The translations under genes and the position numbers were made by a program. The notes below the pieces were generated by a model. The model worked only from the letters and a program-made list of their open reading frames with translations. It did not search any database and was not told the origin of the DNA. Shown one piece after another: positions 27,551-63,694 of a stretch of 64,000 nucleotides of DNA. Where the stretch lies: NCBI GenBank assembly GCA_963732385.1, contig CAVSZB010000005.1, positions 236,790 through 300,789 on the forward strand, read 5' to 3'. This DNA comes from an uncultured bacterium (GTDB lineage Bacteria > Krumholzibacteriota > Krumholzibacteriia > LZORAL124-64-63). Numbering within the stretch: the stretch's first letter is position 1; each line of letters opens with the position of its first letter.

Positions 27551-29278
27551 CTACCGGGTGATGACTAGTCGCGCCACTCGCGATTCACCGCGCGCCGTCA
27601 GCCGTGCGTAATAGACGCCCGCGGGCACTGGTCGCCCCGCGGCATCTTGCCCGTCCCAGCCCAGCACGTGCTCGCCGACTGCCGCGGACTCGTTGAAAAG
27701 CGCTCGCACGAGTCGCCCCCGCACGTCGTACAGATCGACCCTGGCGCTTGCGGCGGCGCCCAGCGCGAAGCGCAGCGCACTCCCACCGCCCGAAGGATTC
27801 GGCCCGTTGATCGCAAGTTCGAGGTCCCCCGCCCGGTTCCCGTCCGCGACGCCGACCACCAGGGGAGCCCCCAGCGTGCCGTCGGCGCCGATCCTGCTGG
27901 CGTAGATGTCCCAACTCGGGTTCACGCGATAGTCTTCCCACACGACGACGGCACCGCCCGCACCATCGCCGAGGATGGCCGGCAGGGTCTGGCTGTCAGC
28001 CGCGGTCGAGACGGCGACTCCGTTGGCCGCCCACTGGCCGATGCCGGTCGTGTCGAGGCGCTGGGCGAAGATGTCATAGTAGTAGCCGTCCGTGCGGCGA
28101 TCCTGCCACGTGATGACCGCCCCGCCGGCGCCATCGCGCGCGATCGCCGCCACGGCCTGATCGTAGGCGGCCCCCGAGACGAGCGTCCCGTCGGCAGCCC
28201 ACAGCCCGACGCCCGCGGCGTCGAGACGCTGCGCGTAGACATCGTAGCCGGCCCCGGAGCGCTTGTCGTTCCAGGCGATGATCGCCCCGCCGCTGCCGTC
28301 GCCGGCCAGGACGGGCGCCTCCTGATAGTCCGCGGCCACGCAGACGCTGTCCCCCCCGGCCGTCCACTGCGCGGCCCCTGCGCCGTCGATCTTCTGCGCA
28401 TAGATGTCGGAGCTGGAGCCACGGCGGTAGTCCTGCCAGGCGATGATCGCCCCGCCGGATCCGTCACTGACGATGTTGGGGTAGATCTGGAAACTGCTCT
28501 CCGTCGAAATGGCCACGCCGTTGGGCGTCCATTGCGCCACGCCGGCACTGCTGATGCGCTGGGCGTAGACGTCGTTGTCGCCCCCGCGCTGGTCGTACCA
28601 CGTGATGATGGCGCCGCCGGCGCCGTCGGTGACGATCATCGGCCGTCGCTGGGCCGTCACGGCCGTGCAGACCGCGACTCCGTTGGGCGTCCATTGCACC
28701 ACGCCCAGGGAATCGACCCGCTGGGCGTAGATGTCGTAGTTGGTTCCGCGACCATCCTCCCAGGTGATGATCGCGCCCCCGCCGCCATCGCTGACGATCT
28801 GCGGCTTGCCCTGGGTTCCGGCCAGCACGCAGATCCCGAGACCGTCGGCCGCCCACTGCACCGTTCCGGACGCGGTGACACGACGGGCGTAGATGTCACG
28901 GTTGAAACCGCCGGGACGGTTATCCTCCCACGTGACGATGGCTCCGCCGGCGCCGTCGCCCACGAGCATGGGATATTCCTGGGCAAGCGCCGCCATGGAC
29001 AGAGCGATGCCGTTGACCGCCCATTCCGCCGCACCCGTCCGATCCATCCGCTGGACATAGATGTCCGCGTAGCCGTTCCTGTGGTCCTGCCAGGCTATGA
29101 TCGCACCATCGGCGCTATCGCCTGTAATCGAGGGAAGCCGTTGATTGCCCGTTGAAGTGCAGATCGGATTGTTTGTCGTCTGATCACCGGACCATTGGGC
29201 AAGAGACGGCGTGGCGCACAGGCACACCATGAGGGCCCAGGGAAATCTGGCGCGCAGGAAATTGGCAGAGGCTTTCAT
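27551..29278 (-). CDS. Secreted protein with 8 tandem ~54-aa repeats and a C-terminal FlgD-Ig/T9SS-like domain
   Basis: Signal peptide MKASANFLRARFPWALMVCLCATPSLAQ (GGGAGA 5 nt before ATG 29278). There are eight units of the type GGAIITWxDxRxGxxDIYAQRxxxxGxxQWxxNGVAV. The tail reads RVDLYDVRGRLVRAL...GVYYARL. Confidence 0.75.
   Translation of the reverse strand: MKASANFLRARFPWALMVCLCATPSLAQWSGDQTTNNPICTSTGNQRLPSITGDSADGAIIAWQDHRNGYADIYVQRMDRTGAAEWAVNGIALSMAALAQEYPMLVGDGAGGAIVTWEDNRPGGFNRDIYARRVTASGTVQWAADGLGICVLAGTQGKPQIVSDGGGGAIITWEDGRGTNYDIYAQRVDSLGVVQWTPNGVAVCTAVTAQRRPMIVTDGAGGAIITWYDQRGGDNDVYAQRISSAGVAQWTPNGVAISTESSFQIYPNIVSDGSGGAIIAWQDYRRGSSSDIYAQKIDGAGAAQWTAGGDSVCVAADYQEAPVLAGDGSGGAIIAWNDKRSGAGYDVYAQRLDAAGVGLWAADGTLVSGAAYDQAVAAIARDGAGGAVITWQDRRTDGYYYDIFAQRLDTTGIGQWAANGVAVSTAADSQTLPAILGDGAGGAVVVWEDYRVNPSWDIYASRIGADGTLGAPLVVGVADGNRAGDLELAINGPNPSGGGSALRFALGAAASARVDLYDVRGRLVRALFNESAAVGEHVLGWDGQDAAGRPVPAGVYYARLTARGESRVARLVITR
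27850..29145 (-). repeat. Eight tandem ~162-nt coding repeats (candidate 8-bladed propeller)
   Basis: GGAI/GGAV...W(E/Q/Y/N)D...DIYA(Q/R/S)R recurs 8 times in the translation, with a 54-56 aa period. Confidence 0.65.
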
Positions 29279-49826: not shown

Positions 49827-51938
49827 CTACATCAGTCCCCGGGCCCGCAGCAGCGGCTCCACCGCCGGCTCCCGTCCGCGGAAACTCACGAACATCTCCA
49901 TCGGGTCAGCCACACCGTCCCGCTCCAGGATGTTCTTGCGGAAAGAAGCGGCCGTCGCCTGGTCGAAGATGCCGTTGGCGCTGAAGACATCGAAGGCGTC
50001 GTTGTCGAGCACCGCCGCCCAGATGTAGCTGTAGTAGCCCGCGTCGTAGCTGCCCGTGATGTGCCCGAAGTAGGTGCTGCGGTACCGCGAAACGATTTCG
50101 GGGATGAGGCCGTAGCGGGCGAACAGCTTCTGCTCGAATGCCGGCACATCGACCTTCTCGCCGGCGGGCAGGCTGTGGTAGGCCAGATCCAGCAGGGAGG
50201 CCGCGAGGTACTCCGTGGTGGCGAATCCCTGGTTGAACAGGGTGGCGTTCCTGATGCGGTCGATCAGATTCTGCGGGATCGCCTCGCCCGTCCGGTAGTG
50301 CCTGGCGTACAGCTTCAGGACCTCGGGGTGGAAGGCCCAGTGCTCCATGATCTGGCTTGGCAGCTCCACGAAATCCATGGCCACATAGGAGGTGGCATAG
50401 GGAACCCTGGAGAGCAGGCTCTCCAGGGCGTGGCCGAATTCGTGGAACAGGGTCTCGGTGTCGTCCATGCTCAGCAGGGCCGGTGTGTCCTCCGTGGGCC
50501 GCGTAAGATTGCAGACCACCGAGGTGACCGGCGTGATTTCCCTGCCGTCGCGGAAGTGGTGCCCGCGGTATTCGAGACACCACGCGCCCCCCTCCTTGCT
50601 TTCGCGCGGGAAGAAATCGAGGTACAGGACGCCCAGATGCGCGCCGTCGGCCTCCTCCACTGCGAAGGCCTGGGCATCGGGATGCGGTCGGGGCAGGTCG
50701 GGCAGCGGCGTAAAGGTCAGGCCGTACATCCGGTTCGCCACGGTGAACAGACCCTCGCGCACCTGCTCAACCTGGAAGTAGGGCCGGATCTCGTTCTCGT
50801 CGAGGTCGTACTTCGCCTTGTGGAGCTTCTCCGCGTAGTACATCCAGTCCCAGGAGGCCAGATTGAACCCTCCCCCTTCCTGGTCGATGATTGCCTGCAG
50901 TTCGGAGGCTTCTGTTTTGGCGACCTTGAGGGACTTCTCCCACAGCGAGTTCAGCAGCGCGAAGGCTCGCTCGGGCGTCCGCGCCATCTTGGTTTCGAGC
51001 CGGTAGGCGGCATAGTTCGGGAAACCGAGCAGCTGTCCCTTGTCCGCGCGCAATTCCACCATGCGCGCCAGGACCGCGTTGTTGTCCTGCGGGTTGCCGT
51101 TGTTGCCCCGATTGGTGTAGGCGGCGTAGAGCCGCCGGCGAAGCTCGCGGTTGCGGGCGTACTGGAGGAACGGGATCATGCTGGGCTTGTGGGTGGTGAA
51201 CAACCACTTGCCCGGCAGGCTGTCGGCCGCCGCGGCCTCGGCGGCCGTGGCGATCACGTCCGCGGGCAGGCCGGCGAGATCAGCCTCGCTGTCGATGACC
51301 AGCTTGAACGCATTGGTCTCCGCCAGCAGGTTGGTGTCGAACTGGACGGCCAGAGAGGCCAGTTCCCGGTTGGCGTTGCGCAACTCTTCCTGCTTCTCCG
51401 CCGGCAGCAGGGCTCCGTCGAGCACGAACGACCGGTACAGCCGCTCGAGCAGGTAGCTCCGGGCAGGATCGAGATGCCAACGCTCCTTCTGCTCGTAGAC
51501 CGCCTTGATCCGCGCGAACAGTTGCGGATTGAGCGTGATGGCGTCCTCGTGGCCCGAAAGCCGCGGCTTGATCTCCTCCGAGATCTTCTGGAGGGCCGGA
51601 TTGGTGTTGGCGCTCGTGAGGTTGTCGAAGATGCTGGTGACCGTGCTCAGCAGAACGTCACTGTCGAACAGCGCCTCGACGGTGTTCTCCCAGGTGGGCG
51701 CGGCCGGATTGTTCACGATGTTCTCGATGGCCGCGTTCTGCTGCTTCATGCCCTCCGTGAAGGCCGGCAGGAAGTGCTCGGGCCTGATGCGATCGAAAGG
51801 CGGCACGCCGAAAGGCGTGTCGAACGACGCGAGCAACGGATTGTCGGCGAGGCTCCCCTTATCCATGGCCGGAAACTCCCTGCAGCTCAGACAAAGCGAC
51901 AGCGCGCACAGGACAACGATGACGGACATCCTCTTCAT
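49827..51938 (-). CDS. dcp: Secreted or lipoprotein M3-family peptidyl-dipeptidase (Dcp-like), second copy
   Basis: Signal MKRMSVIVVLCALSLCLSC and zinc motif HEFGH (LFHEFGHALESLL). It is colinear with 2053..4215 (for example FDTPFGVPPFDRIRPEHFLPAF versus WTTPFGMPPFALIKVEHFLPAF). Confidence 0.85.
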   Translation of the reverse strand: MKRMSVIVVLCALSLCLSCREFPAMDKGSLADNPLLASFDTPFGVPPFDRIRPEHFLPAFTEGMKQQNAAIENIVNNPAAPTWENTVEALFDSDVLLSTVTSIFDNLTSANTNPALQKISEEIKPRLSGHEDAITLNPQLFARIKAVYEQKERWHLDPARSYLLERLYRSFVLDGALLPAEKQEELRNANRELASLAVQFDTNLLAETNAFKLVIDSEADLAGLPADVIATAAEAAAADSLPGKWLFTTHKPSMIPFLQYARNRELRRRLYAAYTNRGNNGNPQDNNAVLARMVELRADKGQLLGFPNYAAYRLETKMARTPERAFALLNSLWEKSLKVAKTEASELQAIIDQEGGGFNLASWDWMYYAEKLHKAKYDLDENEIRPYFQVEQVREGLFTVANRMYGLTFTPLPDLPRPHPDAQAFAVEEADGAHLGVLYLDFFPRESKEGGAWCLEYRGHHFRDGREITPVTSVVCNLTRPTEDTPALLSMDDTETLFHEFGHALESLLSRVPYATSYVAMDFVELPSQIMEHWAFHPEVLKLYARHYRTGEAIPQNLIDRIRNATLFNQGFATTEYLAASLLDLAYHSLPAGEKVDVPAFEQKLFARYGLIPEIVSRYRSTYFGHITGSYDAGYYSYIWAAVLDNDAFDVFSANGIFDQATAASFRKNILERDGVADPMEMFVSFRGREPAVEPLLRARGLM

Positions 51939-52091
51939 GGCTTCAACCCCTGCGGATTTCGGGTGCCGGGCCGCGAACGGGGCCGCCCGGGAGGCTGTTT
52001 GAAAACGTTCGCCCCCACGATACACTGTCGGGCCGGGTTGCACTACCCCGGGGTAAGCACCAGAACAGCCGCCGCGGCCATGGCCGTATTG

Positions 52092-52100
52092 TGTTATAAT
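52092..52100 (+). promoter_or_regulatory. Extended -10 promoter element (TGTTATAAT) upstream of the endonuclease gene
   Basis: TGnTATAAT is matched exactly at 52092-52100, in a locally AT-richer stretch 68 nt before ATG 52168. Confidence 0.3.
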
Positions 52101-52167
52101 GGAGAAGTTCCGGAGATGATCGACTTCGGCCACGACGAGGATTTTCACTTCGCCCAAGGAAATCTTT

Positions 52168-53970
52168 ATGTGCATGTCCTGCTTAAGGTTCGGGCGCCTG
52201 GCGCCCCCGTCGGCCGCCTTCCGGATCGCGCTCGTGTTCGTGGCTCTCGCCGCTTTGACGTTCGCCCCGGCCGGGACTGCGGCCGCTCCGCCGCCGGGAT
52301 ATTATGACGCGGTGATCACCGACACCCCCCTGCTGCTGCGCACGACCCTGCACGAGGTGATCGACGACAACCTCAAGATCCCCTACACGTCTTTGAGCAC
52401 GGACACCTGGAACGTCCTCGAGCTGGCCGACCAGGACCCGAACAACTCCGCCAACATCCTCGATCTCTACCGCAACCGCAGCTACGTCAAGTTCGGCGGC
52501 GGCACCGGCCCCTACAACCGCGAGCACAGCTGGCCCAACAGCTATGGCTTTCCGGACGACGGCGCCACCAACTACCCGTACACCGACTGCCATCACCTGT
52601 TCCTCTGCGATGTCGGCTACAACGGCGATCGGGGCAACAAGCCGTTCGGCGCCTGCGCCCCCGGTTCGACGGAGCGCGTCACCGACTACAATGACGGCAT
52701 GGGGGGCGGCTCCGGCGTGTTCCCGGGCAATTCCAACTGGTACAACGCCACCCTCTGGCAGACCTGGAACGGCCGGCAGGGCGACGTCGCGCGCGCCATG
52801 TTCTACATGGACGTGCGCTACGAGGGGGGCACGCACTCCGTCACGGGCGTCGCGGAGCCGAACCTGATCCTCACCGACAACACCTCCCTGATCGTGACCA
52901 CCGGCAGCAACGCGTCGGTCGCCTACATGGGACTGCTGTCGGTCCTGCTGCAATGGAGCGCCGCCGACCCGGTCGACGACCGCGAGCGGGACCGCAACGA
53001 CGCGGTCTACAGCTTCCAGGGGAACCGCAACCCGTTCATCGACCATCCGGAATGGGTGAACGCCATCTTCCTGCCGAGCACCGGGCCGACGATCACTTCG
53101 ATCCCCGACGTGCCGGCCGACCAGGGCGGCCAGCTCCAGGTCAACTGGCAGCGCAATTCCCTCGACGCCGCCGGCTCCCTGGTGCCGATCACGCAGTACA
53201 TCGTCCAGCGGTTCGCGAGCACGTGGGTCGATGTCGCGGTCCAGCCGGCCACCACCTCCGCCACGTATTCCCTGGTCGTCCCCACGAACGACATCGCCTC
53301 GCCGGCCACGCCGCAGCCATGGTCACAGTATCGCGTCGCGGCGGTCGAGACCGGCGGTCTCGTGCATCTTTCCCCGGTGATCAGCGCCTACTCGATCGAC
53401 AACCTGGCCCCACCGACGCCGGTGGTGTCGCTCGACCAGAGCGGTGTCCCCTGGGTGATCTCGTGGGCCATCCCGGAGATTCCCGATTTCAACGCGGCCT
53501 GCGTCTACCGGGGGGACGTGACCGGTTTCGAGCCAACGACGCCGCTGCAGTGCGACGCCGGCACCTCCTGGCTCGAGTACGACACCACGACGCACTATTA
53601 CGTGGTGCAGTTCTCCGACACCCACGGCAACCTGAGCGACTTCAGCGCCGAAGTCTCTCCGGACGTGACGGACGTGCCGGACGCGGGCGTGCGTTTGACC
53701 GCGATCACGCGCGTCTATCCGAACCCGTTCAATCCGCTGACCCGCGTGGCGTTCTCGCTCGGCGAGCCGGGCCCTGTCCGCATCGACCTCTTCGCAGCCG
53801 ACGGGCGTTTGGTGCGCACACTGCTGGACGAGCCGCGCGGCGCCGGCGCGTTCGAGGTCGTCTGGGATGGCACGGACGGGCGGGGCGGCCCGTTGGCCAG
53901 CGGCCCTTATTTCCTGAGGCTGCAAAGCGGCGGCCAGGTCGACACGAGGAAAATGCTGCTTTTGAAGTGA
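52168..53970 (+). CDS. Secreted endonuclease I-family nuclease with a C-terminal FlgD-Ig/T9SS-like domain
   Basis: NREHSWPNSYG, TDCHHLFLCD and FQGNRNPFIDHPEW are endonuclease I motifs. The tail reads VYPNPFNPLTRVAFSLGEPGPVRIDLFAADGRLVRTL...GPYFLRL. Confidence 0.8.
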   Translation: MCMSCLRFGRLAPPSAAFRIALVFVALAALTFAPAGTAAAPPPGYYDAVITDTPLLLRTTLHEVIDDNLKIPYTSLSTDTWNVLELADQDPNNSANILDLYRNRSYVKFGGGTGPYNREHSWPNSYGFPDDGATNYPYTDCHHLFLCDVGYNGDRGNKPFGACAPGSTERVTDYNDGMGGGSGVFPGNSNWYNATLWQTWNGRQGDVARAMFYMDVRYEGGTHSVTGVAEPNLILTDNTSLIVTTGSNASVAYMGLLSVLLQWSAADPVDDRERDRNDAVYSFQGNRNPFIDHPEWVNAIFLPSTGPTITSIPDVPADQGGQLQVNWQRNSLDAAGSLVPITQYIVQRFASTWVDVAVQPATTSATYSLVVPTNDIASPATPQPWSQYRVAAVETGGLVHLSPVISAYSIDNLAPPTPVVSLDQSGVPWVISWAIPEIPDFNAACVYRGDVTGFEPTTPLQCDAGTSWLEYDTTTHYYVVQFSDTHGNLSDFSAEVSPDVTDVPDAGVRLTAITRVYPNPFNPLTRVAFSLGEPGPVRIDLFAADGRLVRTLLDEPRGAGAFEVVWDGTDGRGGPLASGPYFLRLQSGGQVDTRKMLLLK

Positions 53971-54059: not shown

Positions 54060-56744
54060 ATGAATCGCCAACTCCGACTGCTCGTCGTGTTCCTCGCGCT
54101 TTCGGCCCTGACCACCGCCGCCACCGCCGAGATCCCGGCCATCACGGCCGCGGCCGTGTCGGCCGGCGCGGCGCCCCCGCCGACGCCGGAGGCGCACTTC
54201 GCGTTCCGTCCGGGCGCCGACGGGCAGCTCATCGACTACGAGCAGCTCATCGATTACCTCAGGATCCTCGACGCGGCCTCGACGCGGCTGGAACTGCGCG
54301 AGATCGGGGTCTCCCCGCTCGGCAGGCCGATGTATGTGGCCTTCATCTCGAGCGAACAGAACATCCGGCGCCTGGACGAGCTGCGCGAAATCAACCGCCG
54401 CCTCGCGCTCGACCCGGCGATCCCCGACCCGGAACGCGACGGGCTGATCGCGCGCGGGCGCGTGTTCCTCATGGCGACGCTCTCCATGCACGCCGGGGAA
54501 CTCGCGCCATGCCAGGCCCTGCCGATCTATGCCCACGAACTGGTCACGAGCGTCGACCCCGCGATCATGCGCCAGCTCGACGACGCGGTGTGGATGGTGG
54601 TCCCCGCCCACAACCCCGACGGACTCGACATGGTGGTGGAGAACTACCGCAAGTACCGCGGCACGGCGTGGGACGGGGCGTCGCTGCCGGCCGTCTACCA
54701 TCGCTATGTCGGCCACGACAACAACCGCGATTTCGTGACCCTCACCCAGACGGACACCCGCGCCGTTTCGCGCCTGTTCTCGACCGAGTGGTTCCCCCAG
54801 GTGCTGGTGGAGAAGCACGGCATGGGCGTTTCGGGCCCCCGCTTCTACTGTCCGCCCAGCAACGACCCGATCGCCGAGAACATCGAGGCCGGCATCTGGA
54901 ACTGGGTCGCGGTCTTCGGGACCAACCTGGCGCGCGACATGTCCCAGGACGGTCTCGCGGGCGTGGCCCAGCACTGGGCGTTCGACGAGTACTGGCCCGG
55001 ATCCACCGAGACCTCGCTTTGGAAGAACGTGGTTTCGCTGCTGACCGAGAACGCCGGCACCAACGGCGCCTCGCCGCTCTACGTGGAGCCGACGGAGCTG
55101 AACGCCGACGACAAGGGTCTGGCCGAGTACAAGAAGAGCGTCAACCTGCCGGACCCCTGGCCGGGCGGCTGGTGGCGGCTCGGCGACGCAGTGACCTACG
55201 AACTGTCCTCTTTCCGCTCCCTGCTGCGCACCGCCGGCGCGAACCGCGCCGAACTGCTGCGCCTGCGCAATGACCTCTGCCGACGCGAGGTGGCGCGCGG
55301 CCTCAGCCAGGCGCCCTTCTACTTCGTGCTGCCGCCCGAACAGCGCTCGCGCGGAGAGTGGGTGCAACTCGTCGATCTGCTCCAGGAGCACGGCGTGCGG
55401 CTGTTCACGCTGCCACGGGAGGTCGAGTCCGGCGGACGTCGTTTCACGGCCGGCTCGGTGATCGTGCCGCTCGCCCAGTCCTACCGCCCGTTCATCAAGG
55501 AGGTGCTGGAGCGGCAGAGTTATCCCGTGCGGCACTACACGCCGGGCGGCGAGATGATCCGCCCCTACGACATCACGAGCTGGTCGCTGCCGCTCCACCG
55601 CGGCGTGACGGCGGAGCAGGTCGATGTGCGGGCGCCGGAGCTGGAGGCGGCGTGGCAGCCGCTCGAGAGCGCCTTCGCCCTGCCCGCCCCTGCCACCGGC
55701 GTGTCCGCGAAGAGCTGGGGCGTCGCCTTTGCGGCCAACGAGAATGAGGCCTTCCACGCCGGTTTCCTGGCTTTGAAAGCCGGCCTGCCGGTGCTGCGCA
55801 CCACAGAGGCGACAACGGTCGACGGCACGAGCCTGCCCGCCGGCAGTTTCGTGATCCGCGCCGGCGCCGGACCCACCCTCGCTGCGCTGCTGAACGCCCT
55901 GATCGTGCCGCCGCTGGTGCTCGCCACCGAGCCGGCGGTTGCGATGAGTCCGCTCGGCGCGCCGCGCATCGCCCTCGTCGAGACCGCCTTCCACGACATG
56001 GACGCCGGCTGGACGCGCTTCCTTTTGGATTCCTACGGCGTCCCGTTCACGGTCGTGCGTCCCGGCGAGATCCCGACCCGCGATCTCGCCCGGTACTTCG
56101 ACGTGATCGTCTTTCCGAACAGCCAGAAGGAGGAGTTGCTGCATGGGCGCTTCAAGTCCGAAGACACCGCCTATGTGGCCGACGACATCCCGCCGGAGTT
56201 CCGCAAGGGCCTGGGCGCGAAGGGGATGGAAAAGCTGATGGCCTTTGCCGACCAGGGAGGCATCATCCTGGCGTGGGGCGAGGCCTGCGAGCTCTTCCTC
56301 GGCGTGCAGGAGATCAGGCGCGGCAAGGACGAGGTGGAGGAGTTCAGGCTGCCGGTGAATGACGTCAGCGCCAGGCTGGCCAAACAGGGGCTCTCGGTTC
56401 CCGGCGCCTGGCTGCGCGCCCGGGTGACGCAGGACAGTCCGCTGACGTGGGGCATGCCTGAGGAGGCCGGCTTCTTCTCCCGCGGGAAACCGGTCTTGCG
56501 CACCTCACAACCGGGCCTCGACATCGACCGCCGCGTGCTCGTATTTCACCCCGAGAAGGACATCCTGATGTCGGGCTTCGCCGAGGGCGAAAAGCTGCTC
56601 GGCAACACCGCCGCCGGGGTCTGGGCGCGCAAAGGGAAGGGGCAGTTCGTCCTTTACGCCTTCTCTCCGCAGTTCCGCGGCTCGACGCCGGTGACCTACA
56701 AACTGCTGTTCAACGCGCTGCTGCTGCCCCGGCTCACGCGGTAG
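54060..56744 (+). CDS. Secreted M14-family zinc carboxypeptidase with a long C-terminal extension
   Basis: Signal peptide MNRQLRLLVVFLALSALTTAATA. M14 motifs are MHAGELA (HxxE), AHNPDG, and VLVEKHGMG as the third-ligand region. A ~500-aa C-terminal region includes a GATase1/ThuA-like stretch (FDVIVFPN...GGIILAWGEA). Confidence 0.75.
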   Translation: MNRQLRLLVVFLALSALTTAATAEIPAITAAAVSAGAAPPPTPEAHFAFRPGADGQLIDYEQLIDYLRILDAASTRLELREIGVSPLGRPMYVAFISSEQNIRRLDELREINRRLALDPAIPDPERDGLIARGRVFLMATLSMHAGELAPCQALPIYAHELVTSVDPAIMRQLDDAVWMVVPAHNPDGLDMVVENYRKYRGTAWDGASLPAVYHRYVGHDNNRDFVTLTQTDTRAVSRLFSTEWFPQVLVEKHGMGVSGPRFYCPPSNDPIAENIEAGIWNWVAVFGTNLARDMSQDGLAGVAQHWAFDEYWPGSTETSLWKNVVSLLTENAGTNGASPLYVEPTELNADDKGLAEYKKSVNLPDPWPGGWWRLGDAVTYELSSFRSLLRTAGANRAELLRLRNDLCRREVARGLSQAPFYFVLPPEQRSRGEWVQLVDLLQEHGVRLFTLPREVESGGRRFTAGSVIVPLAQSYRPFIKEVLERQSYPVRHYTPGGEMIRPYDITSWSLPLHRGVTAEQVDVRAPELEAAWQPLESAFALPAPATGVSAKSWGVAFAANENEAFHAGFLALKAGLPVLRTTEATTVDGTSLPAGSFVIRAGAGPTLAALLNALIVPPLVLATEPAVAMSPLGAPRIALVETAFHDMDAGWTRFLLDSYGVPFTVVRPGEIPTRDLARYFDVIVFPNSQKEELLHGRFKSEDTAYVADDIPPEFRKGLGAKGMEKLMAFADQGGIILAWGEACELFLGVQEIRRGKDEVEEFRLPVNDVSARLAKQGLSVPGAWLRARVTQDSPLTWGMPEEAGFFSRGKPVLRTSQPGLDIDRRVLVFHPEKDILMSGFAEGEKLLGNTAAGVWARKGKGQFVLYAFSPQFRGSTPVTYKLLFNALLLPRLTR

Positions 56745-56797: not shown

Positions 56798-58024
56798 ATG
56801 GGCCTGCCGCCGGAAGGGGGCGTCGTGCGCAGGATCGTGGGGTTGACGCTGCTGCTGGTGGGGGGCCTGCTCGCGGGCGAGGGGGCGGTGCGCTACTTCC
56901 AGGCCGCCGTGCCGGCGCCGCTGGACACCCCCTACCTGCCGGACGCGGCGGCCGGTTACCGGCTGCGCCCGAGCGGGCCGACGGACGATCCGGCGGCGGA
57001 CGACCACGTCAACACGCTCGGCTTCCGCGACCGCGAGCATCCCCCGGTCAAGCCGGCCGGGACACGGCGGGTGCTGGGGGTTGGCGACTCGTTCGTATAC
57101 GGCGCGGTGCCGCCACGCGAAAACTTCCTGGAGGTCGCGGCGCGGGAGCTGTCGACCGCGCCGGACACGTTGGCGCCGGTGGAGATGGTCCTGATGGGCT
57201 GTCCCGGCTGGAACACCGAGCAGGAGGTCGGCATCGTCCACGAACTCGGGCCGAAGCTGGCGCCCGACCTGATCGTGCTCTGCTTCTCGGTCGACACCGA
57301 CGTGACCGGCATCCCGGTGCGCGGCCGGATCATCCAGGGCAACCTGCTCTACGTCGGCGCGCAGACCCCCGGCCTGAACACGCTGCGGCGATCGCGGCTG
57401 TTCGTGCTCGGCGAGCAGGTCTACCTGCGACGGTTGACGGCGACGGCGCGACGCTTCGCGCGGGCGCTGACCGGACGGCGGGCACCGGCGGACGCGCCGG
57501 CCGTCGCCGGAGCCGCCGACACCGCGTTCGTGCCGACGACCCGCCACTATCTCGGCCGCCAACTGCGCCTGCTGCCGCTGTTCGCGCCGAACCCCGATCC
57601 CCACACCGCGGAACTCTGGCGAGAGGCGGAGCGGCAGCTCGACCGGTTCGACGACGCCTGCCGTGCGGCGGGGGCCCCGTGGCTGATGATGGTGGCGCCG
57701 GCGGAGATCCAGGCCGACCCGAGGCTGCGCGACGTCGTGTTGGCGAGCGCGGATCGACCGTCCGGCACATTCGATTTCGACCTGCCGCAGCGTCGGCTCG
57801 CCGCCTGGGCCGGGGCGCACGGCGTGCCGCTGGTCGATCCGCTTGGGGTGCTGCGCGCCGCGCGCGGCCAGGGGCGCCTGTACGCGCCGAACAACAGCCA
57901 CTGGAACGCGCGCGGAAACGCCTTGGCGGGCCGGCTGCTGGCGACAGCGCTCGCGTCGCGCCTCGCGGGGGAGCCGGAAACCGCGCCACCGTCCTCGTCG
58001 ACGCCTAGAACTGGAAGTAGATGA
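56798..58024 (+). CDS. Membrane-anchored SGNH hydrolase/acyltransferase, AlgJ/AlgX/PatB-like
   Basis: An N-terminal TM segment is followed by VLGVGDSFVYG (GDS block) and NNSHWNARGNALAG (the DxHW-like block of AlgJ/X-type enzymes). It is convergent with the MBOAT gene and overlaps it by 20 nt. Confidence 0.65.
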   Translation: MGLPPEGGVVRRIVGLTLLLVGGLLAGEGAVRYFQAAVPAPLDTPYLPDAAAGYRLRPSGPTDDPAADDHVNTLGFRDREHPPVKPAGTRRVLGVGDSFVYGAVPPRENFLEVAARELSTAPDTLAPVEMVLMGCPGWNTEQEVGIVHELGPKLAPDLIVLCFSVDTDVTGIPVRGRIIQGNLLYVGAQTPGLNTLRRSRLFVLGEQVYLRRLTATARRFARALTGRRAPADAPAVAGAADTAFVPTTRHYLGRQLRLLPLFAPNPDPHTAELWREAERQLDRFDDACRAAGAPWLMMVAPAEIQADPRLRDVVLASADRPSGTFDFDLPQRRLAAWAGAHGVPLVDPLGVLRAARGQGRLYAPNNSHWNARGNALAGRLLATALASRLAGEPETAPPSSSTPRTGSR

Positions 58025-59468
58025 ACGGCGGGTTGGCGTAGAGCCGGAAGGCGGCCGCGGCGATCGTCACGGCCACCAGCAGTTGCGCCAGGACCAGCCG
58101 CGGCCACGGGCGCAGGTCGGCCAGCCAGTCGGGGCGGCCGGTCGCCGCCTGCGTGGCGTCGAGCGCCAGCGTCGCCGCGGCACCGACCAGCACGTGGAGC
58201 GGGAACGCGCCCCAGCCGGCCGCCGGGCGGACGATCCCCGCCAGCACCGCCCCCGCCACACCGAAGTCGGGCGCGCGGAACAGCACGAAAGCGGCCGCCA
58301 CGCCGTGGAAGACGAGCAGCGCGCGGGCGATCTGCGACAGGCGTGCCGGCCAGGCCGCCGGCCATGGCCGCGGCGCCCGTCCCCTTCCCGCCGCCAGCCG
58401 CCAGGCCAGCCACAGCCCGTGCAGCAGCCCCCAAGCCACGAACGTCCAGCGGGCGCCGTGCCACAGCCCGCACAGCGCCATGGTCGGCACGATCGCCAGC
58501 AGGTACGCCAGCGCCAGTTCGTGCGATTCCGCGCCGAGCCGCAATTGCTCCGTGAAACGGAGCGCCCGTCCCAGCAGCGGCGTGAAAAGATAGTCGCGGA
58601 TCCAGGTCGAGAGCGAGATGTGCCAGCGTTGCCAGAACTCGGCGGGAGAACGGCTCAGGTACGGAGCGCGGAAATTCTCCATCAGTTCAAAGCCGAGCAG
58701 GCGCGCGATGCCGCGGGCGATGTCGGAATAGCCGGCGAAGTCGCCGTAGATCTGCAGGGTGAACGCGTAGACCCCGGCCAGCAGCGATGCGCCTGTGGCT
58801 TCGCCCGGAGTGGCGAACGCGCGCTCGACGAACGGCGCCAGCGTGTCGGCGATCGCGATCTTGCGGAAGTACCCGATGACGATCAGCGCCAGGCCGGTCT
58901 CGACCTGACGACGCGTGACGCGCCGCGGCGCAGCCACCTGCGGCAGCAATCGTGACGCCCGCTCGATCGGTCCGGCCACCAGCTGCGGGAAGAACGCCAC
59001 GTAGAGGGCGAAGTCGGCCAGGTTGCGGGCCGGCGCGAGCCGCCGACGATAGACGTCGAGGGCGTAGCCAAGGGTCTGGAACGTGTAGAAGCTGATCCCG
59101 ACCGGCAGGGCGACGCGCAGGGTCGGCAAATCGGCCTGAAGTCCGCAGCGGTTCAGCAGCACGGCTGCCGAGCCGGCGAAGAAATCGAAATATTTGAAGA
59201 CGCCGAGCAGGCCGAGGTTTCCGGTCAGGCTGGCGGCCAGCAGGGCGCGACGACGCCCCGGCGCTGCGGTCGCGTCGAGCCCCCGCCCCACGCCGTAGTC
59301 GAGCAGGGTGGAAAACCACAACAGCGCGAGGAAGCGCCAGTCCCACCAGCCGTAGAAGAGGTAGCTGGCGAGCAGCAGGAAGCGGTTCTGGCTCCGGTGC
59401 GACAGGCGGGGGACGACCGCCAGCACCGCTGCCAAAAAGACGAGGAAGGGGAGCGAGTTGAACAACAC
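58005..59468 (-). CDS. MBOAT-family membrane O-acyltransferase (AlgI/DltB/PatA-like)
   Basis: LFNSLPFLVFLAAVL...LLLASYLFYGWWDWRFL...GISFYTFQ...FWQRWHISLSTWIRDYLF, with the conserved His region. The start is GTG 59468. Confidence 0.85.
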   Translation of the reverse strand: MLFNSLPFLVFLAAVLAVVPRLSHRSQNRFLLLASYLFYGWWDWRFLALLWFSTLLDYGVGRGLDATAAPGRRRALLAASLTGNLGLLGVFKYFDFFAGSAAVLLNRCGLQADLPTLRVALPVGISFYTFQTLGYALDVYRRRLAPARNLADFALYVAFFPQLVAGPIERASRLLPQVAAPRRVTRRQVETGLALIVIGYFRKIAIADTLAPFVERAFATPGEATGASLLAGVYAFTLQIYGDFAGYSDIARGIARLLGFELMENFRAPYLSRSPAEFWQRWHISLSTWIRDYLFTPLLGRALRFTEQLRLGAESHELALAYLLAIVPTMALCGLWHGARWTFVAWGLLHGLWLAWRLAAGRGRAPRPWPAAWPARLSQIARALLVFHGVAAAFVLFRAPDFGVAGAVLAGIVRPAAGWGAFPLHVLVGAAATLALDATQAATGRPDWLADLRPWPRLVLAQLLVAVTIAAAAFRLYANPPFIYFQF

Positions 59469-59492
59469 GTCCGGTGACCGCCCCTGGGAAGA

Positions 59493-61061
59493 TCAGCCCC
59501 GGAGACGCTTCGTGTAGATGATCCGGTCGTCGCCGATGGCGTAGTAGTCGGCGATGCACGCCGCCTCGTCATAACCGCAGCCGAGATAGAAGCCGCGCGT
59601 GGAGGTGTAGCCGGAACTGCCGGACGTTTCGATCACCGACAGGTTGCCGCCGCGCGCGAGAATCAGCGCCTCGCAATGGCGCACGAGCGCCTTGCCTGTA
59701 CCGCGCCCCTGGCGATCGGGCGCCACGCCGAGCCAGTAGATGTCCCAGGCGCCGAGGGTGCAGGGGGTAGGACCGGCGCAGACCCAGCCCGCCACCCCCG
59801 CCTCGTCTTCGGCCACGAACGACTGGTAGTGCCCGCCGGAGCCGGCCTCGAGCGCGTCGTCGAGCACCTCGGCGGCCACTTCCAGCTCGTCGGGCCGGAA
59901 AAAGCCGGTGGCGGCCAGCAGATCGAGCACCGGCTGGCGGTCGGCGGGGACGCTGTGGCGGATCGTGGCGCGCCGCGGGGCGGCGGCGTTGCGCGAGGCG
60001 CGCGCCGGAACGGCCGGCGGCGCACCGTCGGCCGGAGCCGGACGGCGCGCCGCGGCGTTGGCCACCAGGGCGCCGACGAACGTGGCGTAGCGCACCCCGC
60101 CCGCCTTCAGGGCGGCGGAAAATCCGGCGTCGGGCGAAATGTCGGGGTCGACGTTCACCTCGAGAATGAACGGGGCGCCGCGGCGCGAAAGGCGGAAATC
60201 CACGCGAGCATAGTCGCTGCAGCCACAGGCGTCCCAGGCGGCCCGGGCGAGCCGCGTCACCTGCGCGGCAAGCCGCGCCGGCAGGCGCGCCGGCAACACG
60301 CGACACAGACCGTGGTACTCCGGCGTGCCCGGCACCCATTTCGCCCGGTAGCCGACAAGGTGGGGCAGCTCGCGTCCGTAACCGCTGAAATCGATCTCGG
60401 CGATCGGCAGGACGGTCACCTCGGACCCGCGCTGCCACAGCCCGACGTTCAGTTCGCGCCCGTCGACGAACTGTTCCACCAGCGCCGGCTGGCCGAACTT
60501 CGCGTGGATTTCGGCCACGAGCCGCCGCAGGGTGACGCCCGGACCGGGGCAGAGCGAGTGCGTGTCGATCCCCTCGCTGGCGTCCGCCGAAACCGGTTTG
60601 ACGATCAGCGGCCCGCGCGGCAATCCCCGCGTCGGCACTTTCTCCCCCACGCGCACCAGCAGGCCGCCGGGGACCGGCAGCCCCGCGCCCTGCAGCACGG
60701 CCCGCGTGCGCCACTTGTCGAGCGTGAGGGCGGCGCACGGCGTGTCGCCGCCGGTGCACCCCTTGCCGTGCGCCGCGCAGAGTGCCGGCACCAGGAGCTC
60801 GGCGCCCGGCGCATCGCCGAGCGACTCGATCAGGTTGAATACGACCGGCTCGGGCGCGTGCGCGACCGCAGAAATGACTTCGGCGAGCGTGCGGACCGCC
60901 ACGACCCGATGCACGTGCCCCGCACGCGCCAGAGCCGCGGCCACCGCCTTCGCCTGGGAGAGGACCCCCGCGTCGCTCTCGGCACAGCTCGCGCCGGGGT
61001 ACAGGCCCGCGGCGGCCGGAGCGTTGTGCAGCACGAGGACGGACGGCTTTTCACGCGCCAT
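59493..61061 (-). CDS. Fusion protein: Ddl-type ATP-grasp ligase + C-terminal GNAT acetyltransferase
   Basis: The N-terminal ~330 aa have a D-Ala-D-Ala-ligase-like ATP-grasp layout (DKWRTRAVLQGAGLPVP...PLIVKP...VEQFVDGRELNV...RVDFRL...PFILEVNVDP). The C-terminal ~150 aa are GNAT (WLGVAPDRQGRGTGKALVRHCE). The ATG overlaps the upstream stop by 11 nt. Confidence 0.75.
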   Translation of the reverse strand: MAREKPSVLVLHNAPAAAGLYPGASCAESDAGVLSQAKAVAAALARAGHVHRVVAVRTLAEVISAVAHAPEPVVFNLIESLGDAPGAELLVPALCAAHGKGCTGGDTPCAALTLDKWRTRAVLQGAGLPVPGGLLVRVGEKVPTRGLPRGPLIVKPVSADASEGIDTHSLCPGPGVTLRRLVAEIHAKFGQPALVEQFVDGRELNVGLWQRGSEVTVLPIAEIDFSGYGRELPHLVGYRAKWVPGTPEYHGLCRVLPARLPARLAAQVTRLARAAWDACGCSDYARVDFRLSRRGAPFILEVNVDPDISPDAGFSAALKAGGVRYATFVGALVANAAARRPAPADGAPPAVPARASRNAAAPRRATIRHSVPADRQPVLDLLAATGFFRPDELEVAAEVLDDALEAGSGGHYQSFVAEDEAGVAGWVCAGPTPCTLGAWDIYWLGVAPDRQGRGTGKALVRHCEALILARGGNLSVIETSGSSGYTSTRGFYLGCGYDEAACIADYYAIGDDRIIYTKRLRG

Positions 61062-62052
61062 GCGGCTGCTCCAGACGCTCGCACGCGGCGGCGATGATGC
61101 CGCCGATCAGGTCGCGAAAGGCCATATCGGCGAAGCGCGCGATGATCGGCAGATCGGAGTGGTTGGCATTGAGGCCCGGCAGCGGATTGATCTCCATGAA
61201 GCTGGGCACGCCGCCGGCATCGAGACGGATGTCGACGCGGGCGCCGTCGCGGCACTCGAGCGCGAGGTACGACGCCACCGCCAGCGCCTCCACGCGTTCG
61301 CGCAGCGGTCCGGGCGCCAGTTCGTCGTAATCGACGACGTTCTCGTACTCGTGCTTGTTCTGGAACGAGTAGATGGCCCGCTCCACCGGACGACGGATCC
61401 GCACCTCCATGGTGCCGATCGCGCGGGCCCGCGGCCCGTTGCCGAGCAGGCCCACCGTGAATTCGCGTCCCGGAAGGTACTCCTCCACCAGCACCGGCTG
61501 GCGCAGCCGCGCCAGCAGGTCGCGGCAGACACGCGCCAGGTCGTCCGGGCCGGCCGCGTACGACGCTTCAGCGATCCCCTTGCCGGTCCCCTCGGCGATC
61601 GGCTTGGCGAACAGCGGATAGCGCAGCCGCGCCAGGGCGACGGCGCGCAGGTCGTCCTCGTCGCGCACGACGTGGAAGGCGGGCGTGGCCAGGCCGGCGT
61701 CGCGCACGAGGCGCTTCGTCACCGCCTTGTCGAGCGTGACGGCGCAGACCAGCGGATCGGAGAAGGTGTAACCGATGCCGTACAGCTCCAGCAGGGCCGG
61801 CACCTGAGCCTCGCGGCTGCGCCCGTCGAGACCCTCGGCGATGTTGAAAACGAGGTCCCACCGCTCGCCCGCGACGAGGCGCGCGCACAGCGCGCGGGCG
61901 TGTCCGATGCGGTCGGTGTCGTGCCCGAGCTCGCGGATCGCCCCCTCGAGCAGATCGATGGTTTCCTCGCTGTCGAACTCGGCCACCTCTTCGGCGGTGT
62001 GGCCGAGCGCGAGCCAGTCGGAGCAGAGGTCGTACGTCAATCCGATGCGCAT
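61051..62052 (-). CDS. Ddl-type ATP-grasp ligase (stand-alone)
   Basis: MRIGLTYDLCSDW...DKAVTKRLVRDAGLATP...PLFAKPIAEGTGKGI...VEEYLPGREFTVG...RVDIRLD...PSFMEINPLPGL. GGAGGAGGA RBS is present. The ATG at 62052 overlaps the kamA-like stop by 16 nt. Confidence 0.75.
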   Translation of the reverse strand: MRIGLTYDLCSDWLALGHTAEEVAEFDSEETIDLLEGAIRELGHDTDRIGHARALCARLVAGERWDLVFNIAEGLDGRSREAQVPALLELYGIGYTFSDPLVCAVTLDKAVTKRLVRDAGLATPAFHVVRDEDDLRAVALARLRYPLFAKPIAEGTGKGIAEASYAAGPDDLARVCRDLLARLRQPVLVEEYLPGREFTVGLLGNGPRARAIGTMEVRIRRPVERAIYSFQNKHEYENVVDYDELAPGPLRERVEALAVASYLALECRDGARVDIRLDAGGVPSFMEINPLPGLNANHSDLPIIARFADMAFRDLIGGIIAAACERLEQPHGA

Positions 62053-63374
62053 GGTCCTCCTCCGCGTGCGCGCCGGCTCAGGCGCACCGTGCCGGCCGGC
62101 ATGATCGCCGTGGCGCGTCCGCGCGCCAGATCCCACACGCCGGTGCCCTCCGGCGTCTGCTCCGGGCCGACCGCCTCCAGGTGCGCGCCCGGCTCCGGGT
62201 AGCCCACCATCAGCCCCTCGAAGTTGCGCAGCACGGTGTGCGTCGGGCTGACCGACACGACATAGTTGGGCAGCAGCGGGATCTTTCCGCCGCCGTGCGG
62301 CACATCGACGCAGAACGTGGGGATGGCCAGGCCACTCACCCTGCCACGCAGATATTCCATGATCTCGATGCCACGGGATAGCGGCGTGCGGAAGTGCTCG
62401 ACCCCGCGCACCAGGTCGCACTGGAACAGGTAGTACGGCCGCACGCGCAGCCGCAAGAGACCTCGGCAGAGCTGCTCGATCACGCGGGGGTGGTCGTTCA
62501 CCCCACGCATCAGAACCGTCTGATTGCCGAGCGGGATACCGGCGTCGGCCAGTCGGGCGCACGCCGCGGCCGATTCCGGCGTCAGTTCGCGCGGGTGGTT
62601 GAAGTGCGTGTTGACCCAGAGCGGGTGGTAGCGGCGCAGCATGCGCACGAGTTCCTCAGTGATACGCATCGGCAGCGTCACCGGCGCTCGCGTGCCGATC
62701 CGGATGATCTCCACGCTCGGCACCTGGCGCACCGCCTGCACGACCCGTTCGAGCGCGGCCGTGGGCAGGGTGAGCGGGTCGCCGCCGGAGATGATCACAT
62801 CGACGATCTCCGGGTGCCGGACCAGGTACGCCACCGCCTGCCGCAGATGTTCCTCGGCGATGACGCCTTCGCGAGCGCCCGTCTTGCGCTTGCGCGTGCA
62901 GTGCCGGCAGTACATGGCGCACGCCGAGGTCGCCACCAGCAGCGCGCGGTCGGCGTACCGGTGCACCAGACCCGGCACCGGCATGTCGGCGTCTTCATCG
63001 AGCGGATCGTCGCGCAAAAATGGCGGGTCCCACAACTCCCGGGCATGCGGCAGGCTCATCTGGAGAATGGGGTCGGCCGGATCGCCGGGCCGGATGAGCG
63101 ACGCGTAGTAGGGCGTGATGGCGAACGGGAACCGGGCCGCCGCTTCGGTCAGGCCGGGCGGCGCCTGCACGCCGGGGAGGAACTCGCACAACTGCTCCGG
63201 CGTGCGCAGGCGGTTGCGCATCTGCCAGCGCCAGTCGTCCCACCGGGGGACATCCTGCAGATCGGGGCGCCAGGCGGCCGGCGCCACATGCGTGAGGTCG
63301 GGCAGAACGAACGTCGCCTCGGGTGCGGCGCCGCGCGCGCGCGCCTCGCACACCGCCATGCTGCGAGGTTTCAT
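62037..63374 (-). CDS. KamA-family radical SAM/PLP 2,3-aminomutase (lysine 2,3-aminomutase-like)
   Basis: FPFAITPYYASLI...VHRYADRALLVATSACAMYCRHCTRK (CxxxCxxC)...ISGGDPL...VDVPHGGGKIPL (PLP-Lys region). Start chosen at ATG 63374. The amino-acid substrate (Lys, Glu or Arg) cannot be decided by eye. Confidence 0.85.
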   Translation of the reverse strand: MKPRSMAVCEARARGAAPEATFVLPDLTHVAPAAWRPDLQDVPRWDDWRWQMRNRLRTPEQLCEFLPGVQAPPGLTEAAARFPFAITPYYASLIRPGDPADPILQMSLPHARELWDPPFLRDDPLDEDADMPVPGLVHRYADRALLVATSACAMYCRHCTRKRKTGAREGVIAEEHLRQAVAYLVRHPEIVDVIISGGDPLTLPTAALERVVQAVRQVPSVEIIRIGTRAPVTLPMRITEELVRMLRRYHPLWVNTHFNHPRELTPESAAACARLADAGIPLGNQTVLMRGVNDHPRVIEQLCRGLLRLRVRPYYLFQCDLVRGVEHFRTPLSRGIEIMEYLRGRVSGLAIPTFCVDVPHGGGKIPLLPNYVVSVSPTHTVLRNFEGLMVGYPEPGAHLEAVGPEQTPEGTGVWDLARGRATAIMPAGTVRLSRRARGGGPCASD

Positions 63375-63546
63375 GCTTTCCCGGCAACCCCCCGCCGTCC
63401 ACCCGGCGGCCGCGGCCGCCGCGCGTGTCAAAAGTGATTTCGCCGCGCGCCGCCGACGCCGCCGGTGGGATCGCCCAAGTTTGTCATAGATCCGGAAACC
63501 GATCGGATTCGAATCTGCGACAACCTTTGACGGCCAACCGTCCGCC

Positions 63547-63576
63547 TCGACCCGCGTCGCGCATCGCGATTATAAT
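63547..63576 (+). promoter_or_regulatory. Candidate sigma70-type promoter (TCGACC-N18-TATAAT)
   Basis: TATAAT at 63571-76 lies in an AT-richer intergenic stretch, about 120 nt upstream of GTG 63695. Confidence 0.3.
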
Positions 63577-63694
63577 CTTGGGGTTCCATGAATCAAGCGC
63601 AACATGCCCTTTCCAGTGGGGATTTTGAACTTTTCTTGCTCCTGAGACAATTTTGGCTGAAATTTGACTTTCGGACAGGAGAGGAGTCACGACG

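Follow-up and report, generated by a model that had tools for sequence, protein, structure and literature searches.

Three minus-strand genes at positions 59493-63374 of the DNA analyzed here, a window of 64,000 nucleotides from an uncultured bacterium of the Krumholzibacteriota (contig CAVSZB010000005.1, positions 236,790 to 300,789), encode a KamA-type aminomutase, an ATP-grasp ligase (ATP-grasp ligase 1, AG1) and a second ATP-grasp ligase that is fused to a GNAT acetyltransferase (AG2-GNAT). KamA, AG1, AG2 and GNAT form a conserved operon module that is found in hundreds of genomes, which represent ten or more bacterial phyla, and this conclusion is well supported. On balance, we favor the view that the three genes constitute a self-contained cytoplasmic pathway leading from L-lysine to a small, N-acetylated amide that contains beta-lysine. 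What is new is the combination, which is built from known kinds of enzymes and is widespread and misannotated. A first-pass annotation of the window had predicted an undescribed pathway for the ligation and acylation of a beta-amino acid, extended to the cell envelope by a fourth gene. The core of this idea held, carried by the conserved three-gene unit, the lysine-type KamA and ligases that are distinct from Ddl, whereas the extension to an MBOAT-family protein and the envelope did not. The attribute "undescribed" stands as far as open-access full text shows, in which we found no description of the module combination.

The KamA homolog (62037-63374, minus strand, 445 amino acids counted from the ATG, as deduced from the list of open reading frames (ORFs) and the reading of the junctions) belongs to the radical-SAM/pyridoxal phosphate (PLP) family of lysine 2,3-aminomutases (LAMs). 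It is followed on the same strand by AG1 (61051-62052, 333 amino acids, Ddl fold) and by AG2-GNAT (59493-61061, 522 amino acids), in which an ATP-grasp part (approximately residues 1-343, nucleotides 60033-61061) is connected by a disordered linker (residues 344-363) to the GNAT part (approximately residues 364-522, nucleotides 59493-59972). The ATG of AG1 is located 5 nucleotides past a Shine-Dalgarno sequence (GGAGGAGGA), and the start of AG1 overlaps the stop of KamA by 16 nucleotides (ATGCGCATCGGATTGA). The overlap between AG1 and AG2-GNAT comprises 11 nucleotides (ATGGCGCGTGA), and a spacing of 24 nucleotides separates AG2-GNAT from the next gene on the same strand, which codes for the MBOAT-family protein. 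The ORF listing and the junction reads reproduced these overlaps and the gap exactly as they had been described before. The notion that the four genes are packed as a unit is correct in the physical sense for all of them, but as a conserved unit it applies to the first three only. Since a metallophosphoesterase-like gene starts on the plus strand at approximately 63693, beyond a divergent intergenic or promoter region of 318 nucleotides (63375-63692), KamA heads the minus-strand operon. Rfam gave no match between 56000 and 64000, and thus no indication of a riboswitch or leader RNA ahead of KamA.

Homologs of AG2-GNAT are numerous, with more than 1000 close database matches, occurrence in at least 585 species genomes and 2,711 representatives at 50% identity (E ≤ 1e-30). 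We surveyed the best 80 of the at least 585 genome loci with crude gene calls and counted as informative those loci with at least 4.3 kb of upstream sequence for KamA (n = 55), at least 1.1 kb of upstream sequence for AG1 (n = 69) or at least 3 kb of downstream sequence (n = 59). KamA was present in 51 of 55 and AG1 in 64 of 69 informative loci. Both genes were found together in 49 of 55 loci, with the gene order KamA, AG1, AG2, GNAT on one strand and a single permuted exception (L074). Since this order recurs in 49 of 55 loci from many phyla, the linkage of the three genes is far beyond chance. According to the record titles, the genomes with AG2-GNAT belong to the Planctomycetota (Phycisphaerae, Sedimentisphaerales and Pirellulales), Kiritimatiellia, Lentisphaerae and Victivallales, to the Acidobacteriota, Candidatus Eisenbacteria, Myxococcota, Chloroflexota including Dehalococcoidia, and Nitrospirae, and to the Syntrophobacterales and other deltaproteobacteria. 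With independent gene calls, the cluster was recovered from Lentisphaeria, Spirochaetaceae (CP070696.1), Sumerlaeota and others. The co-occurrence of KamA, an ATP-grasp ligase and an ATP-grasp-GNAT fusion, for which a neighborhood comparison had been proposed, is thus retained across phyla. Conservation of the full four-gene linkage failed in the same comparison, in which the MBOAT gene was located beside the module in 1 of 59 loci. Gene fusions add a further line of evidence. Most genomes encode AG2 and GNAT as one fused protein, but in approximately 15 loci they are separate genes coding for about 340 and about 160 amino acids. Moreover, we found AG1-AG2 fusion proteins of 640-712 amino acids that share 47-51% identity with the AG1 of the window over its whole length (P0478, P0485, P0489, P0500-P0502 and P0505). 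Together, the two kinds of fusions support a functional coupling of the encoded activities in the sense of Rosetta-stone evidence.

The KamA homolog contains the Pfam domains Radical_SAM and LAM_C and passes the cut-off of the KamA subfamily model TIGR00238 (307.4 bits, cut-off 199.2). Among the specific NCBIfam models, the AblA equivalog TIGR03820 gave the best score, 483.6 bits, which is under its cut-off of 525.4. The models for EpmB (TIGR03821, 250.5 bits, cut-off 369.3), glutamate 2,3-aminomutase (TIGR04368, 418.6 bits, cut-off 650) and arginine 2,3-aminomutase (TIGR04468, 350.4 bits, cut-off 600) gave clearly lower scores, each under its cut-off. Ten further module KamAs from different phyla scored 481-505 bits with the AblA hidden Markov model (HMM) and 230-264 bits with the EpmB HMM. 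All eleven tested sequences align to positions from about 4 to 365 of the 417 positions of the AblA model, and the C-terminal tail is absent. Judged by these alignments, the module KamAs form a coherent subgroup that is AblA-like but has another C-terminus. The KamA of the window shares 49.6% identity with the LAM of Clostridium subterminale (PDB 2A5H; E 3.5e-134), in which its CAMYCRHC motif corresponds to C125/C129/C132 and the lysine of its GGGK motif to K337. The full KamA signature of a CxxxCxxC cluster and a GGGK PLP lysine, which the first-pass annotation had recognized, was thereby confirmed at the level of individual residues. C125/C129/C132, R134, D293, D330 and K337 are invariant in 57 of 57 sequences, comprising the window KamA and 56 module-linked homologs aligned to 2A5H. 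In the LAM structure, D293 and D330 hold the epsilon-ammonium group of lysine and R134 binds the carboxylate (2A5H numbering). The equivalents of D293 and D330 are replaced in glutamate 2,3-aminomutases. The cysteines of the Zn site of the clostridial LAM (268/375/377/380) are absent from the window KamA and its homologs in the alignment. The first-pass annotation had named membership in the EpmB clade, combined with EpmA and a Lys34 target in elongation factor P (EF-P) in the genome, as an objection to the pathway. The protein is nearest to the AblA type, with 483.6 against 250 bits for EpmB and with D293, D330, R134 and K337 retained, and we found no efp gene in the window and no efp-type gene among the recurrent neighbors of the module. 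It is well supported that KamA is a lysine-type 2,3-aminomutase, and formation of beta-lysine from L-lysine is the best-supported step of the proposed pathway.

In public records, both ATP-grasp proteins are named "D-alanine--D-alanine ligase". AG1 carries the Pfam domain Dala_Dala_lig_C, and AG2-GNAT carries Dala_Dala_lig_C together with Acetyltransf_1/7. With the Ddl models of NCBIfam, AG1 reached at best 139.9 bits and AG2 at best 100.2 bits, compared to cut-offs of at least 243, and NCBIfam has no specific curated family for either ATP-grasp protein. The AlphaFold2 model of AG1 (pLDDT 88.0) has its best PDB matches among Ddl structures, with TM-scores of 0.75-0.8 and 22-29% identity, and Foldseek also assigned the ATP-grasp part of the AG2-GNAT model (pLDDT 82.7) to Ddl, with a TMt of approximately 0.8. 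In the PDB, the ligase parts of both models match only Ddl/Van ligases, at 17-29% identity. For a comparison of individual residues, 46 AG1 and 37 AG2 sequences were aligned with Escherichia coli DdlB, the numbering of which is used here. K97, K144, E180, E187, K215, R255, D257, E270 and N272 are kept in both families and in the proteins of the window, as is the lid loop. Since the catalytic residues and the lid loop are retained, both ligases are predicted to be active ATP-dependent carboxylate-amine ligases, and their catalytic competence is well supported. A different picture emerges for H63, S150, Y216 and S281/L282 of DdlB, the residues that bind D-alanine (D-Ala). H63 is replaced by glutamate in both AG1 and AG2, Y216 by glutamate in the AG1 family (histidine in the AG1 of the window) and by tryptophan in AG2, S150 by threonine in AG1 and by alanine in AG2, and L282 by aspartate in AG1 and by glycine in AG2. 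Additionally, G276 is replaced by aspartate in AG2. The acidic residues gained in the former D-Ala pockets (E63 in both ligases, E216 and D282 in AG1, D276 in AG2) would fit a cationic substrate, an inference drawn from sequence alignment only. With scores of 140 and 100 bits against a cut-off of 243 and with replaced D-Ala-binding residues, it is well supported that AG1 and AG2 are not true Ddl enzymes, and neither do they appear as the Ddl or RimK orthologs that the first-pass annotation had listed as a possible objection. The public annotation as D-alanine--D-alanine ligase looks wrong. Some AG2 homologs additionally gave weak Pfam matches of the TTL/RimK type.

The GNAT domain of AG2-GNAT exceeds the Pfam cut-offs for Acetyltransf_1/7 and contains the acetyl-CoA motif RQGRGTG with the invariant glycines, so that an intact domain is predicted with good support. 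Its closest structural match is 2R7H (DDE_3044 from a Desulfovibrio strain), with a TM-score of 0.93 and 39% identity in Foldseek and an E value of 6e-32 in phmmer. 2R7H is a structural-genomics protein that was named "putative D-alanine N-acetyltransferase" by its depositors, a name for which we found no experimental basis. The AblB-specific model was absent from the best 25 of the 29 families listed for the fused GNAT, and likewise from the families shown for a stand-alone module GNAT and for the GNAT-HDAC fusion described below.

The first-pass annotation missed two recurrent accessory genes, both of which are absent from the window. A gene for a TetR regulator lies upstream of KamA in 29 loci. 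The second accessory gene codes for a fusion protein of 575-600 amino acids with an N-terminal GNAT domain and a C-terminal HDAC-family domain, which is closest to bacterial acetylpolyamine amidohydrolases (APAHs; 6PHR with E 9e-76, also 3Q9B and 3MEN). In approximately 14 of the 80 loci, the gene for this GNAT-APAH fusion either separates KamA from AG1 or adjoins the cluster, and of 6 further loci, 5 have it inside or beside the cluster. The fusion is conserved at 60-76% identity across phyla (L047:7222-8967, with equivalents in L037, L038, L044, L054, L055, L056, L061, L064, L069, L015, L073 and L167-L172). The full cluster is composed of TetR, KamA, GNAT-APAH, AG1, AG2 and GNAT, and the window has a short form of it. 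By analogy with APAHs, the deacetylase domain suggests a reversible acetylation of a terminal alkyl-amine. Unlike known APAHs, it is fused to a GNAT domain in the fuller clusters and embedded in an operon for KamA and ATP-grasp ligases. When 59 downstream and 34 upstream neighbors were counted by Pfam family, no other family reached more than three loci, and genes for a transporter, a carrier protein, a peptidase or a candidate target protein did not recur among them. In L169 (5790-9758), a lone GNAT-APAH homolog directly follows a gene for an SLC12-type cation-chloride cotransporter, possibly a hint at an osmotic context.

Taken together, these observations suggest a pathway in which KamA would produce beta-lysine from L-lysine, a step that is well supported. 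AG1 and AG2 would then form one amide bond each through an acyl-phosphate intermediate, with beta-lysine or N-acetyl-beta-lysine as carboxylate partner, amine partner or both, and the GNAT domain fused to AG2 would acetylate a remaining free amine with acetyl-CoA. The product would most likely be a di- or tripeptide or a beta-lysyl conjugate. In the fuller clusters, GNAT-APAH may attach an acetyl group to a terminal alkyl-amine, for example the epsilon-amine of the beta-lysine moiety, and take it off again, and such acetyl cycling could be a means of pool control, recycling or transient protection. A small cytoplasmic metabolite is favored by the compact Ddl architecture of the ligases, by the TetR control, by the small-molecule type of the deacetylase and because no gene for a target or for export is linked to the module. 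Physiologically, this metabolite would most likely act as a compatible solute or as a polyamine-like cytoplasmic cation buffer.

Several known systems resemble parts of this scheme. AblA and AblB produce N-epsilon-acetyl-beta-lysine, which is a compatible solute of methanogens and some bacteria. The module shares with AblA/AblB the operon structure of a KamA-type aminomutase with the same catalytic and lysine-binding residues followed by a GNAT, but differs in the two ATP-grasp ligases inserted between them. Moreover, the module KamAs score just under the AblA cut-off and are devoid of the C-terminal Zn and multimerization tail, and the module GNAT is a domain of 160 amino acids related to 2R7H, with no match to the AblB model among the families shown. 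With Ddl and Van ligases, AG1 and AG2 share the three-domain ATP-grasp fold, the ATP, Mg and catalytic residues and the lid loop, but in addition to the replaced D-Ala-binding residues and scores of 100-140 bits against at least 243, their context is KamA and GNAT and not cell-wall genes. The best functional analogy for AG2-GNAT, at the level of domains only, is Ngg, reportedly a bifunctional protein of a GNAT and an ATP-grasp domain that makes the osmolyte dipeptide N-acetylglutaminylglutamine. In both cases, one polypeptide combines an acetyltransferase with an ATP-grasp ligase for the synthesis, in our case proposed, of an N-acetylated small peptide. In AG2-GNAT, however, the domain order is reversed, the ATP-grasp part is of the Ddl type instead of the RimK/cyanophycin type, and a dedicated aminomutase would provide its substrate, a beta-amino acid. 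Synthesis of N-acetyl-aspartyl-glutamate is a further functional analogy. In the EpmB/EpmA system, a KamA-family aminomutase also supplies beta-lysine for an ATP-dependent amide ligation, as we propose for the module. The module KamA nevertheless lies outside the EpmB group, the ligases are of the ATP-grasp type and do not resemble lysyl-tRNA synthetase, and no linkage to efp was seen.

A sub-variant of the proposed pathway, with a different class of product, is rather unlikely in our estimation. In this case, the ligases would join beta-lysine head-to-tail via its epsilon-amine or attach it to a polyamine, and GNAT and APAH would tune the charge of the resulting polycation by adding and removing acetyl groups, in the way known from SpeG/SSAT and APAH acting on polyamines. 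The similarity of the accessory deacetylase to acetylpolyamine amidohydrolases and the acidic substitutions in the pockets of both ligases would fit such a polyamine surrogate, as would a gene for an ornithine/lysine/arginine decarboxylase adjoining the module in L083 and a deoxyhypusine-synthase-like gene downstream of it in one locus. However, these polyamine-related neighbors are single cases that do not recur, the closed active sites of Ddl-type enzymes usually yield dipeptides rather than polymers, and the window contains no APAH gene. Modification of a protein appears very unlikely. According to this explanation, an ATP-grasp ligase would replace EpmA and attach beta-lysine, later to be acetylated, to EF-P or another protein, and the GNAT and HDAC-type domains would be a protein acetylase and deacetylase. 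KamA paralogs indeed supply beta-lysine for EF-P in gamma-proteobacteria (PMC2821294), and the weak TTL/RimK-type matches of some AG2 homologs as well as a RimK-like third ATP-grasp gene in L077 point in the same direction. Against a protein target stand the AblA-like and not EpmB-like character of the module KamAs, the finding that neither efp nor another candidate target is linked to the module in the neighborhoods checked, and the compact Ddl architecture of both ligases, which have a lid loop and are devoid of an extra protein-binding domain. TetR control and an acetylpolyamine-type deacetylase likewise point to small molecules.

We give hardly any credence to the remaining reading of the ligases themselves, namely that they are ordinary cell-wall Ddl paralogs that synthesize D-Ala-D-X and lie fortuitously beside a catabolic or osmolyte-producing KamA. 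It accords with the public annotation and with Ddl being the closest relative in both fold and sequence, but the scores are far under every Ddl HMM cut-off, the replacements of H63, S150, Y216 and L282 are family-specific, the linkage to KamA is kept across phyla and backed by fusions, and no mur or ftsQ context is present. Highly improbable is also the idea that the beta-aminoacyl or acetyl product is passed on for decoration of the envelope, according to a DltB-like logic. The first-pass annotation had suggested that the MBOAT protein (58005-59468, minus strand, 487 amino acids, GTG start) and a signal-anchored SGNH/AlgX-like protein (56798-58024, plus strand, 408 amino acids) could move an acyl or aminoacyl group onto an envelope polymer. 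In favor of this suggestion is the position of the MBOAT gene, which lies 24 nucleotides past AG2-GNAT on the same strand and abuts the convergent SGNH gene with an overlap of 20 nucleotides, and the arrangement is kept in L001, a sister genome with 94% identity. Yet L001 is the only one of the 59 loci in which MBOAT and SGNH are located beside the module, and none of 80 metagenomic MBOAT relatives with 38-58% identity adjoins a KamA or ATP-grasp gene. On these grounds, we rejected MBOAT as a member of the pathway. The MBOAT protein matches Pfam MBOAT with 68 bits but fails the DltB model TIGR04091 (164.3 bits, cut-off 375), and no gene for an AMP-binding or carrier protein of the DltA/DltC type was found between 52000 and 64000. 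The SGNH protein stays below the Pfam cut-offs for Lipase_GDSL_2 (30.8 against 32.9 bits) and ALGX (21.1 against 26.5 bits).

The MBOAT relatives instead occur next to SGNH-like genes. In L087, which contains the closest metagenomic MBOAT, an SGNH ortholog with 48% identity adjoins it in the same convergent arrangement, and in 27 other MBOAT loci the next downstream gene aligns with a conserved GxS...DxxH pattern that is SGNH-like, with scattered matches to GDSL, DUF1574, DltD and AlgX. AlgI/AlgJ/AlgX, PatA/PatB and DltB/DltD are known pairs of MBOAT and SGNH proteins that function as O-acyltransferases, and the same pairing of domains is present in the window genes at 58005-59468 and 56798-58024, with the difference from DltB/DltD that the MBOAT of the window is not a DltB ortholog. 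MBOAT and SGNH thus probably represent an independent, extracytoplasmic O-acyltransferase pair that is unrelated to the module and acts in polysaccharide O-acylation. MBOAT may be co-transcribed with the operon by an accident of its position.

Several points weigh against the proposed pathway from L-lysine to an N-acetylated beta-lysine amide. The survey was confined to the 80 best loci out of at least 585 and relied on crude gene calls, and within it KamA was missing from 4 of 55 informative loci. In L083, where AG1 is 72% identical to that of the window, the same divergent metallophosphoesterase gene directly precedes AG1 and AG2-GNAT (L083:8964-12561) and KamA is absent, an arrangement which implies that the ligase pair can exist without an adjacent aminomutase. 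AG1 was missing from 5 of 55 informative loci (e.g. L016 and L064), indicating that a fixed scheme of two ligations is not universal. An acetyltransferase and a deacetylase in one polypeptide have no clear rationale, and the data do not directly support an osmolyte role, as salt-related genes are not consistently linked to the module. Finally, the substrates assigned to AG1, AG2 and the GNAT domain are derived from gene linkage and pocket residues only.

It is possible, rather than probable, that with AG1 and AG2 ATP-grasp ligases dedicated to a beta-amino acid are found for the first time, that they act together with KamA and GNAT in the synthesis of a previously unknown class of N-acetyl-beta-lysine peptides or amides with a wide phylogenetic distribution, that an acetylation and deacetylation cycle is operated by GNAT-APAH in the fuller clusters and that anaerobic PVC, FCB-related, acidobacterial, spirochaetal and deltaproteobacterial lineages use the product as osmolyte or polyamine surrogate. 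If true, hundreds of genomes, mostly from uncultured anaerobic lineages, would share a compact route to a new metabolite derived from beta-lysine. This would be a fifth fate of beta-lysine beside acetylation by AblB, lysylation of EF-P, incorporation by nonribosomal peptide synthetases and fermentation. Furthermore, it would introduce new substrate specificities into the Ddl branch of the ATP-grasp ligases, correct a widespread misannotation as D-alanine--D-alanine ligase and provide a function for the structural-genomics GNAT 2R7H (DDE_3044).

Individual loci showed further features. Comparison of L083 with the window indicates that KamA has been gained or lost precisely at the site between the metallophosphoesterase gene and AG1, and in L083 the gene for the ornithine/lysine/arginine decarboxylase and a DUF3326 gene converge downstream of the module. 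The permuted locus L074 (3882-12599), from a divergent member of the Kiritimatiellaeota, has the order AG1, AG2, GNAT, KamA. Ahead of the module lie genes for AI-2E and EamA transporters and one gene each of the ornithine-cyclodeaminase and proline-racemase families. In L077 (7811-8815), from the Syntrophobacterales, the third ATP-grasp gene is of the RimK/LysX type and is located between KamA and AG1. In L085 (808-7898), from the Lentisphaeria, rubredoxin-like, peroxiredoxin and ferritin genes lie upstream of the module and a 4HBT thioesterase gene downstream. A link to oxidative stress or low-molecular-weight thiols, considered on the basis of the L085 flanks and of a peroxiredoxin gene near the module in L083, was dropped because the pattern was not recurrent.

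In the window itself, the region next to the SGNH gene contains a gene at 54060-56744 (plus strand) for a secreted protein of 894 amino acids, in which an M14 zinc-carboxypeptidase domain at the N-terminus is followed by a long C-terminal region without family match. The gene at 52168-53970 (plus strand) codes for an Endonuclease I domain protein with a C-terminal FlgD-Ig/T9SS-type sorting domain, and similar C-terminal domains recur at 20000-21034 and 27554-27802, both on the minus strand. A large ORF at 49827-52175 (minus strand) contains the zinc-peptidase motif HEFGH in its translation and resembles an M3-type oligopeptidase.

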